A DNA stretch of 64,000 nt from assembly GCA_964016885.1 (NCBI GenBank), contig OZ024743.1, positions 343,046,001 through 343,110,000 on the forward strand, written 5' to 3'. Source of the stretch: Eledone cirrhosa. Taxonomy: Eukaryota. The translations under genes and the position numbers were made by a program. Positions 15,468 to 17,237 of this stretch are shown piece by piece (the stretch's first letter is position 1; the number at the start of each line of letters is the position of its first letter). A model generated the notes under the pieces. It worked only from the letters and a program-made list of their open reading frames with translations. It had not been told where the DNA came from and did no database searches.

Positions 15468-15553
<86 letters not shown>

Positions 15554-15847
15554 AAAACAAATAACGAAACGAAATTAAATTTCGTTTCGTTTGTAACTCA
15601 CTTTTGTATGACTGACGCTTAAACAATTAAGTTAAAAATGTACATCTACATATGCATACTGAAATACTAGTGTGTATATGAATACACACACGTATACATA
15701 TGTAGGTGTACCAAGTCTTTCACTGGTCGCTTTACAGTGAGCGGCCCAGCTATTCTGTATGTAAACACACAGACAAACCGGTTTTTAGAGTCATACTGGT
15801 TTTTCGGGGGAACACCTTCCCCCTATTCTCCAGAAAGCCAGACAAGG

Positions 15848-15892
15848 AATATTGAACTAGTTTCGTTGTTGTTACAACTCATCAGCAATATT
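15848..15892 (-). ncRNA. Type-I hammerhead ribozyme (copy 1)
   Basis: AAUAUUG-CUGAUGA-GUUGU aaca ACAAC-GAAA-CUAG-UU-CAAUAUU. Confidence 0.88.
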
Positions 15893-15970
15893 TACCTATC
15901 TACCGGCCTTTCTGGAGAATTGTAAAAGCACATATCGTTATATGCTTTTTCTATACATATATATATATAC

Positions 15971-16001
<31 letters not shown>

Positions 16002-16012
16002 CATATATATAC

Positions 16013-16077
<65 letters not shown>

Positions 16078-16118
16078 CACATATATATACATATATATAT
16101 ATACATATATATATATAC

Positions 16119-16155
<37 letters not shown>

Positions 16156-16444
16156 AAACAAATAACGAAACGAAATTAAATTTCGTTTCGTTGTAACTCA
16201 CTTTTGTATGACTGACGCTTAAACAATTAAGTTAAAAATGTACATCCACATATGTATACTGAAATACTAGTATGCATATGAATACACACACGTGTACATA
16301 TGTAGATGTACCGAGTTTTTCACTGGTCACTTTACTGTGAGTGTCCAACTATTCTGTATGTAAACACACAGACAAACCGGTTTTAGAGTCATACTGGTTT
16401 TTGAGGAAACACCTTTCCTCTATTCTCCAGAAAGCCAGACAAGG

Positions 16445-16489
16445 AATATTGGACTAGTTTCGATGTTGTTACATCTCATCAGCAATATT
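16445..16489 (-). ncRNA. Type-I hammerhead ribozyme (copy 2, GUC cleavage triplet)
   Basis: AAUAUUG-CUGAUGA-GAUGU aaca ACAUC-GAAA-CUAG-UC-CAAUAUU. Confidence 0.92.
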
Positions 16490-16910
16490 TACCTATCTTC
16501 CGGCCTTTCTAGAGAATCGTAAAAGCACATATCGTTATATGCTTTTTCTATGAAAATTAGTAGTGGGCAGACTAATTTGCATAGAGCGTGAGTACGTACC
16601 GGTTCAACGGAGACGATAAAAACAAATAACGAAACGAAATTAAATTTCGTTTCGTTTGTAACTCACTTTTGTATGACTGACGCTTAAACAATTAAGTTAA
16701 AAATGTACATCCATATATGTATACTGAAATACTAGTATGCATATGAATACACACACGTATACATATGTAGATGTACCAAGTCTTTCACTGGTTACTTTAC
16801 TGTGAGTATCCAGCTATTCTGTATGTAAACACACAGACAAACCGGTTTTTAGAGTCATACTGGTTTTTGAGGAAACACCTTTCCTCTATTCTACAGAAAG
16901 CCAGACAAGG

Positions 16911-16955
16911 AATATTGAACTAGTTTCGTTGTTGTTACAACTCATCAGCAATATT
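16911..16955 (-). ncRNA. Type-I hammerhead ribozyme (copy 3)
   Basis: Same motif as copy 1. Confidence 0.88.
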
Positions 16956-17237
16956 TACCTATCTACCGGCCTTTCTGGAGAATCGTAAAAGAACATATCG
17001 TTATATGCTTTTTCTATGAAAATTAGTATTCTGGAGAATAGAGGAAAGGTGTTTCCTCAAAAACCAGTATGACTCTAAAAACCGGTTTGTCTGTGTGGTT
17101 TACATACAGAATAGCTGGACACTCACAGTAAAGTGACCAGTGAAAAACTCGGTACATCTACATATGTACACGTGTGTGTATTCATATGCATACTAGTATT
17201 TCAGTATACATATGTGGATGTACATTTTTAACTTAAT

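Follow-up and report, generated by a model that had tools for sequence, protein, structure and literature searches.

Arrangement of the locus

The window, i.e. the whole analysed stretch of 64,000 nucleotides from Eledone cirrhosa, contains three direct copies of a non-coding unit, each with a hammerhead ribozyme (HHR), followed by an inverted 209-bp part of the same unit. Unit positions are counted from the first base after cleavage (m1), and RNA-sense 3' ends are referred to two sites, site B (m225-236) and site A (m298-305). The features are as follows.

15551-15954, minus strand: copy 1, a separate 5'-truncated single-arm insertion of 0.9 unit, 3' end at site A
15832-15903, minus strand: HHR1, type I hammerhead, GUU triplet, H17 at 15855 (U)
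15955-16151: (TA)n/(TACA) tract of ~200 bp between copy 1 and the main insertion
16152-16617, minus strand: copy 2, complete 466-bp unit of the GUC subfamily; its RNA-sense 3' end, at site A, abuts TA
16153-16224, minus strand: 'tail' of ~72 nt running from site A to site B (at 16225 or 16220); a hairpin of 13 bp occupies 16164-16192
16429-16500, minus strand: HHR2, canonical type I hammerhead, GUC triplet, H17 at 16452 (C), palindromic ACUAGU helix III
16575-16582, minus strand: octamer-like ATGCAAAT, part of a hairpin; the cleavage site lies 123-130 nt downstream
16618-17028, minus strand: copy 3, unit of a GUU subfamily, truncated at its 5' end and arranged head-to-tail with copy 2
16895-16966, minus strand: HHR3, type I hammerhead, GUU triplet, H17 at 16918 (U)
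17029-17237, plus strand: inverted second arm, head-to-head with copy 3; its RNA-sense 3' end, at site B, abuts TA
17238-23480: TA-rich microsatellite of 6.2 kb flanking the B end of the main insertion

The three direct copies named in an initial annotation of the window are all present, but its three-copy tandem was dropped, as the ~200-bp TA tract sets copy 1 apart with a 3' end of its own and only copies 2 and 3 are joined in tandem. Likewise, the unit length of 466 bp holds for copy 2, the sole full-length unit at the locus, and for the spacing of HHR2 and HHR3, whereas copies 1 and 3 are truncated. The absence of ORFs and the inverted partial copy at the end of the array were borne out: the longest ATG ORF of the tandem pair comprises 50 aa and the longest stop-free frame 60 aa, and the inverted arm lacks both tail and HHR.

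Relative to copy 2, copy 1 has 23 mismatches (93% identity), copy 3 has 14 and belongs to a different subfamily, and the inverted arm has 1 mismatch in 208. Copy 3 hence differs in subfamily from both copy 2 and the inverted arm, and the switch between copies 2 and 3 is located at 16526-16715, in or near the tail and away from the cleavage site; template switching, a mosaic source and conversion are possible causes. With its A end at 16152 and its B end at 17237, the main insertion fits the end pattern of the family described below, and we infer that the two end sites bounding the tail represent a pair of reverse transcription start sites. A small contig (L002; G000:C214) repeats the whole locus at near identity and is probably an unmerged haplotype.

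The hammerhead ribozyme

All three direct copies carry a type I HHR on the minus strand, as already recognised in the initial annotation, with Rfam HH9 scores of 38.6 bits for HHR1 and HHR3 and 38.9 bits for HHR2 that correspond to E ~3e-6 over the window and lie under the Rfam gathering score of 52. HHR2 and HHR3 are separated by the 466 nt given there, HHR1 and HHR2 by 597 nt. The HH9 alignment covers all 77 model positions, loop III excepted, and the fold comprises a 6-bp helix I extended by an internal loop and a distal helix, a 4-bp helix II capped by a loop of 6 nt, and a weak helix III of 1-2 bp that is palindromic; the palindrome co-folds as a 6-bp duplex. Cervera and de la Pena (2014, PMC4209133) use this very architecture to define the canonical type I HHRs of metazoans, which are active as dimers. 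The predicted fold of the window ribozyme fits this canonical type rather than the minimal form of Penelope-like elements (PLEs), and the earlier designation as a minimal HHR was abandoned in view of the HH9 alignment and that definition.

In a small alignment of 8 hand-picked, related copies from three families, two-sided changes occur in 6 of 14 pairs and 95.5% of cells pair, against 30-49% for slid partners; out of five shuffle measures on covariation, one is near the null and one below it. Compensatory changes are kept across families in helices I and II. The monomer folds on itself far better than shuffled sequences do, with z = -10.2 as a linear and z = -8.7 as a circular molecule, and GC is 0.35-0.36 in the Rfam-aligned parts. 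Rfam matches to the miRNAs MIR4208 and mir-297, below the gathering score, were rejected as hairpin and TA artefacts.

GUC is present in 3,252 of 9,408 cleavage-site matches genome-wide, about two thirds being non-GUC. The commonest triplet in the sampled copies, and the common non-GUC one, is GUU, a poorer cleavage substrate.

Family size and homogeneity of arrays

The genome-wide copy number, a check suggested by the initial annotation, is high. The exact 19-nt cleavage-site pattern has 9,408 matches in the 3.0-Gb genome and 0 in the reversed control, hence the repetition of the unit is not due to chance; the annotatable repeat added amounts to ~4 Mb (9,408 x 466 bp, a rough figure). A DNA search returned at least 105 matches, 40 of 130 candidates having been scored. 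The genome also contains mollusc-type haemocyanin genes of seven units, in which the best single-unit match is to PDB 1js8 (octopus) at 855 bits, against 738 for 4yd9 (squid) and 514 for 3j32 (gastropod); the host is hence probably an octopod. Monomers are mostly 465-469 bp long and are found on many contigs, in arrays of up to more than 20 units. Non-LTR retrozymes are marked by the lack of a primer-binding site and a polypurine tract; an LTR-internal-LTR layout is present in none of the arrays examined. Two samples were analysed, one of 35 stretches picked by similarity and one chosen by position, with 27 stretches over the first 100 pattern matches on contig C1 that hold 24 insertions.

Among 188 full units, those of the same arm differ at 1.9 positions on average, those of opposite arms at 0.6 and those of separate loci at 27. 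Arrays with 0 substitutions are located at L089/90 (17 units), L037 (12) and L035 (5), in L089/90 and L037 across both arms, which suggests repeated copying of one monomer; alternatively, identical units may arise from gene conversion or assembly polishing. L031 and L033 contain singleton substitutions only, and L039 and L056 are heterogeneous. In 4 of the 9 arrays displayed (L032, L055, L071 and L076), shared variants recur with periods of ~7, 3, 5 and 2-3 units, possibly through local duplication or multimeric templates. These periodic variants, together with the window arm of two subfamilies, cannot be produced by a single monomer circle. Contigs from four runs of unspecified kind were not counted in favour of a circle: two of the runs (X5, X6) include one contig each of unit length plus about 31, and a joint in X6 leads back 464, but tandem DNA gives the same graph.

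Ends and polarity of the insertions

RNA-sense 3' ends coincide with site A or B in 93 of 98 readable cases, a count that leaves out three ends at sequence edges or gaps. The two end windows represent 4% of the unit, lie ~70 nt apart and do not coincide with the cleavage site, and (TA)n follows nearly every on-site end. All 41 two-armed insertions are joined head-to-head with both 3' ends outward (tails-out), and they divide into 33 with one A and one B end, 1 with two B ends, 0 with two A ends, 5 with one off-site end and 2 that are unreadable. When both ends are on-site, the A+B combination is hence found in 33 of 34 (p ~2e-9 against independent choice), and in 15 of 16 in the position-sampled set alone; further mixed clusters among the matches listed have the same order in 13 of 13. 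The inner junctions, by comparison, have no fixed position in the unit and show short overlaps or fillers, and arm length ranges from 0.1 to more than 20 units. Several 'single-arm' loci (L061, L069, L077) retain a few bases of an opposite arm that ends at the other site. In non-LTR retrozymes, target-site duplications exceed 4 bp when present. Thirty two-armed loci lie in TA-repeat flanks, uninformative for such duplications, and possible ones were noted at L038, L066 and L079 only.

PLE insertions are known to combine an inverted 5'-truncated copy, a tail at one end and a TA bias (Craig et al., PMC8557442), a PLE protein introduces nicks into both strands of AT-rich DNA (Frangieh et al., PMC11167929), and in its reverse transcription two internal starts on the RNA bound the tail (PMC11167929). 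The ends of the present family, which are unusually clear, reproduce this published Penelope signature of inverted copy plus tail on an element devoid of ORFs.

Search for a partner element

Searches with 58 PLE protein queries gave matches in 34 of 60 family stretches. Attachment of the unit to a PLE ORF, likewise suggested as a check by the initial annotation, was detected in none of these 60 stretches, in that no unit lies directly 3' of such an ORF; four sense-upstream PLE matches within 2.5 kb consist of three TA-separated elements and one weak match. PLEs are abundant, and of 10,595 GIY-YIG candidates in the genome, 50 were inspected. Copies of the family or of its sister families are present at 3 of these loci, each behind a TA tract, and the unit forms the 3' repeat of a GIY-YIG ORF at 0 of 50, as judged with a profile from 12 + 14 monomers dominated by the main family. 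With known families removed, the tail pattern yielded 1 match, a sister-family copy. Of two hammerhead patterns with another helix II, one gave 1 match and the other 107, against 21 in the control, those listed for the latter being largely deletion derivatives of known families. No autonomous partner sharing the 3' end of the unit was found among the small number of PLE families covered. Coding PLEs seen in the genome carry other hammerheads, and the closest named relatives of one GIY-YIG PLE are found in mollusc-associated records.

At two loci (L040:4002-4104 and L067:4236-4435), family arms are joined head-to-head, without intervening TA, to C-terminal GIY-YIG fragments of two PLE types. 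These junctions are no more than leads; they may represent chimeric insertions and hint at a partner.

In the window itself, a Neptune-like PLE spans 7003-9097, with a hammerhead-like motif at its 3' side (8920-8957) in which U replaces C3 and A replaces G8, i.e. a compensated core pair. Similar elements are present at L164 and L170, and this PLE family has a tail of ~70 nt, too. Two further inverted hammerhead pairs, at 20626/23573 and 45854/47024, belong to other PLE-type elements and are oriented tails-out into TA tracts.

Sister families

Another copy in the window belongs to a related family.

47660-48070, plus strand: sister-family copy, ~430-bp unit, GUA triplet, core at 47789, 62% identity to the unit over 353 nt

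For this 430-bp family, also represented at L123-L152, 1,414 candidates were obtained, 40 of which were scored. A second sister family, with a 511-bp unit, is represented at L163:6590-8001. Both have a GUA triplet and share with the main family the hammerhead design, the tail hairpin, the two end sites and the octamer-like ATGCAAAT. An snRNA-type internal promoter has been reported for newt satellite 2, and it is said to involve an octamer.

Dozens of dispersed copies in the 430-bp family (e.g. L182, L184, L186) have the same 8-nt deletion in helix II, which reflects either slippage of the reverse transcriptase at the hairpin or a mobile subfamily with a dead ribozyme.

Discussion

Based on the copy number, the ribozyme and the anatomy of the ends, we propose, with a probability of roughly 85%, that the repeat in the window belongs to an ORF-less hammerhead family of high copy number, which is likely a non-LTR retrozyme that depends on a Penelope-like element for its mobility in trans. 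The notion of a non-autonomous hammerhead family moved by Penelope-type enzymes into TA repeats, put forward in the initial annotation, is supported by the genome-wide insertion anatomy. Its assignment of the mobilisation to the neighbouring PLEs is not, as nothing ties the family to the particular PLEs of the window. The novelty was also overrated as stated, non-LTR retrozymes and their link to PLEs having been published (PMC7229834; bioRxiv 10.64898/2026.07.22.740005). The class being known, a single locus is ordinary, and the family is probably a further example, from a cephalopod.

Non-LTR retrozymes have been described from coral, Mytilus, axolotl (Rtz_331/HHR_Amex1) and newt (satellite 2) (Cervera and de la Pena 2020, PMC7229834), and reviews are available for comparison (PMC6155905, PMC5680766, PMC7761336). 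The present family resembles those of PMC7229834 in its tandem non-coding units of a few hundred bp with low GC and a canonical type I HHR each, in its thousands of copies and in its strongly self-paired monomer, and resembles axolotl HHR_Amex1 in the weak helix III with a palindromic tetraloop. In contrast, its 466 nt exceed the range of 150-450 bp given there, while falling inside the 51-972 bp of bioRxiv 10.64898/2026.07.22.740005, GUU is a common triplet, octopods are absent from the main text of PMC7229834, and the family is known here from genome sequence alone. The word 'inverted' is equally absent from that main text. Li, Clavereau and Pollet (2026, bioRxiv 10.64898/2026.07.22.740005) derive retrozymes from PLEs as non-autonomous elements, and we share with them the hypothesis of PLE-driven mobility and the observation of dispersed monomers, dimers and multimers. 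Their evidence consists of co-occurrence and pseudo-LTR homology, mostly in vertebrates, with unequal crossover favoured for local expansion, whereas ours consists of insertion ends, and no homologous pseudo-LTR of a coding PLE was found in the sampled loci.

Among EN+ PLEs (PAc/Poseidon of Anolis, PMC11167929; Neptune, Naiad and Chlamys MRC1, PMC8557442), the inverted 5'-truncated arm, the one-ended tail, the two internal starts and the AT-rich or (TA)n targets are likewise present; MRC1 of Chlamys is non-autonomous, and MRC1-type elements form multicopy head-to-tail insertions (PMC8557442). The family differs from them in the lack of an ORF, in the canonical instead of minimal hammerhead and in a tail of ~70 nt as compared to 30-40. 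Moreover, its pairing of A and B ends is near-strict, whereas PAc in vitro has no strand difference in start site (PMC11167929). The giant squid genome paper counted 235 hammerhead matches without analysis. Among the papers returned by our literature search, none describes a cephalopod retrozyme and, among the matches listed, none a retrozyme with an inverted, two-site end pattern, though supplements, repeat databases and subscription papers may cover either.

The mobilisation may be envisaged as follows. The array would be transcribed on the hammerhead strand, and neighbouring hammerheads would pair via the palindromic helix III and release a 466-nt monomer, which a host ligase could close to a circle. 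A PLE protein would then bind the tail hairpin region and, through its GIY-YIG domain, introduce a nick into each strand of a (TA)n tract. Reverse transcription would be primed internally from each nick, at A on one strand and at B on the other, and run round the template for 0.1 to more than 20 units per arm, until the two cDNAs come together head-to-head and repair seals the junction. Several points weigh against this scheme. Copying does not require a circle, since uncleaved RNA was the main substrate of PAc (PMC11167929). In vitro, only 1 of 9 predicted retrozyme dimers cleaved (bioRxiv 10.64898/2026.07.22.740005). To these are added the position of the ends away from the cleavage site, the prevalence of non-GUC triplets, the periodic variants and the mixed window arm, the Rfam scores under the gathering score and the small covariation alignment of related copies. 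A fuller version, which we advance tentatively and at somewhat below even odds, is that a cephalopod retrozyme superfamily of at least three related units (430-511 bp) records, in thousands of insertions, how a PLE copies one monomeric RNA circle by rolling-circle reverse transcription, with a fixed internal start for each of the two nicked strands; the shared octamer-like motif may serve as an internal promoter. If true, the postulated step from circle to genome in animal retrozymes would gain direct evidence from a genome, and the two PLE subunits or priming rounds would be seen to use different start sites.

The same element and enzymes could instead operate on a linear, uncleaved multimeric transcript, the hammerhead trimming ends or being a passenger. 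This is compatible with PAc insertion in vitro, which is unaffected by HHR mutants (PMC11167929), with the prevalence of GUU in the sampled copies, and with the periodic variants and the mosaic window locus. However, the runs of 12-17 identical units in different subfamilies, the same across the inversion, would then require repeated resetting to one monomer, the compensatory changes in helices I and II are kept across families, and retrozyme circles have been demonstrated in coral, mussel and axolotl (PMC7229834); on balance, we consider a linear template somewhat unlikely.

Two further explanations were considered. In the first, a coding PLE has the unit as its terminal repeat and gave rise to the arrays by shedding solo pseudo-LTRs, which would agree with the full PLE insertion signature and with Xenopus, where 24 of 57 retrozyme families match known transposable elements, nearly all of them PLE termini (bioRxiv 10.64898/2026.07.22.740005), and the GIY-YIG loci inspected are a small part of the candidates. 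This explanation is nonetheless improbable in view of the missing attachment to PLE ORFs in the 60 stretches sampled, the TA-separated or weak nature of the upstream matches, the nesting of family or sister copies behind TA tracts at three of the 50 GIY-YIG loci and the canonical hammerhead, different from those of coding PLEs; arms of more than 10 pure units in addition need a template without an ORF. Finally, an ordinary satellite or foldback DNA element, with DNA-level spread by unequal crossover or rolling circle DNA and a relic hammerhead, would account for the higher-order periodicity of some arrays, suggestive of local DNA duplication. It does not predict the uniform tails-out orientation, 3' ends fixed at two sites alongside random 5' junctions, or the rule of one A and one B end, and no terminal inverted repeats are common to both unit ends. 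The end analysis largely refutes this last possibility, which we regard as very improbable.

Returning to a retrozyme mobilised by a PLE, the value of the family is that of a test case, both for which enzyme moves animal retrozymes and for whether or not the circle is the template. Prior arguments on retrozyme mobility relied on co-occurrence and homology; here, PLE-type ends are found on an ORF-less element with simple statistics, and a 70-nt region is defined for testing with a PLE protein.

Other features of the window

An ORF at 54699-55310 matches the chitin-binding domain CBM_14 (E 8e-6), with no homologue of similar length in a protein search. On the minus strand, 1845-5313 is occupied by a broken LINE with matches to endonuclease, reverse transcriptase and C2H2 zinc-finger domains.
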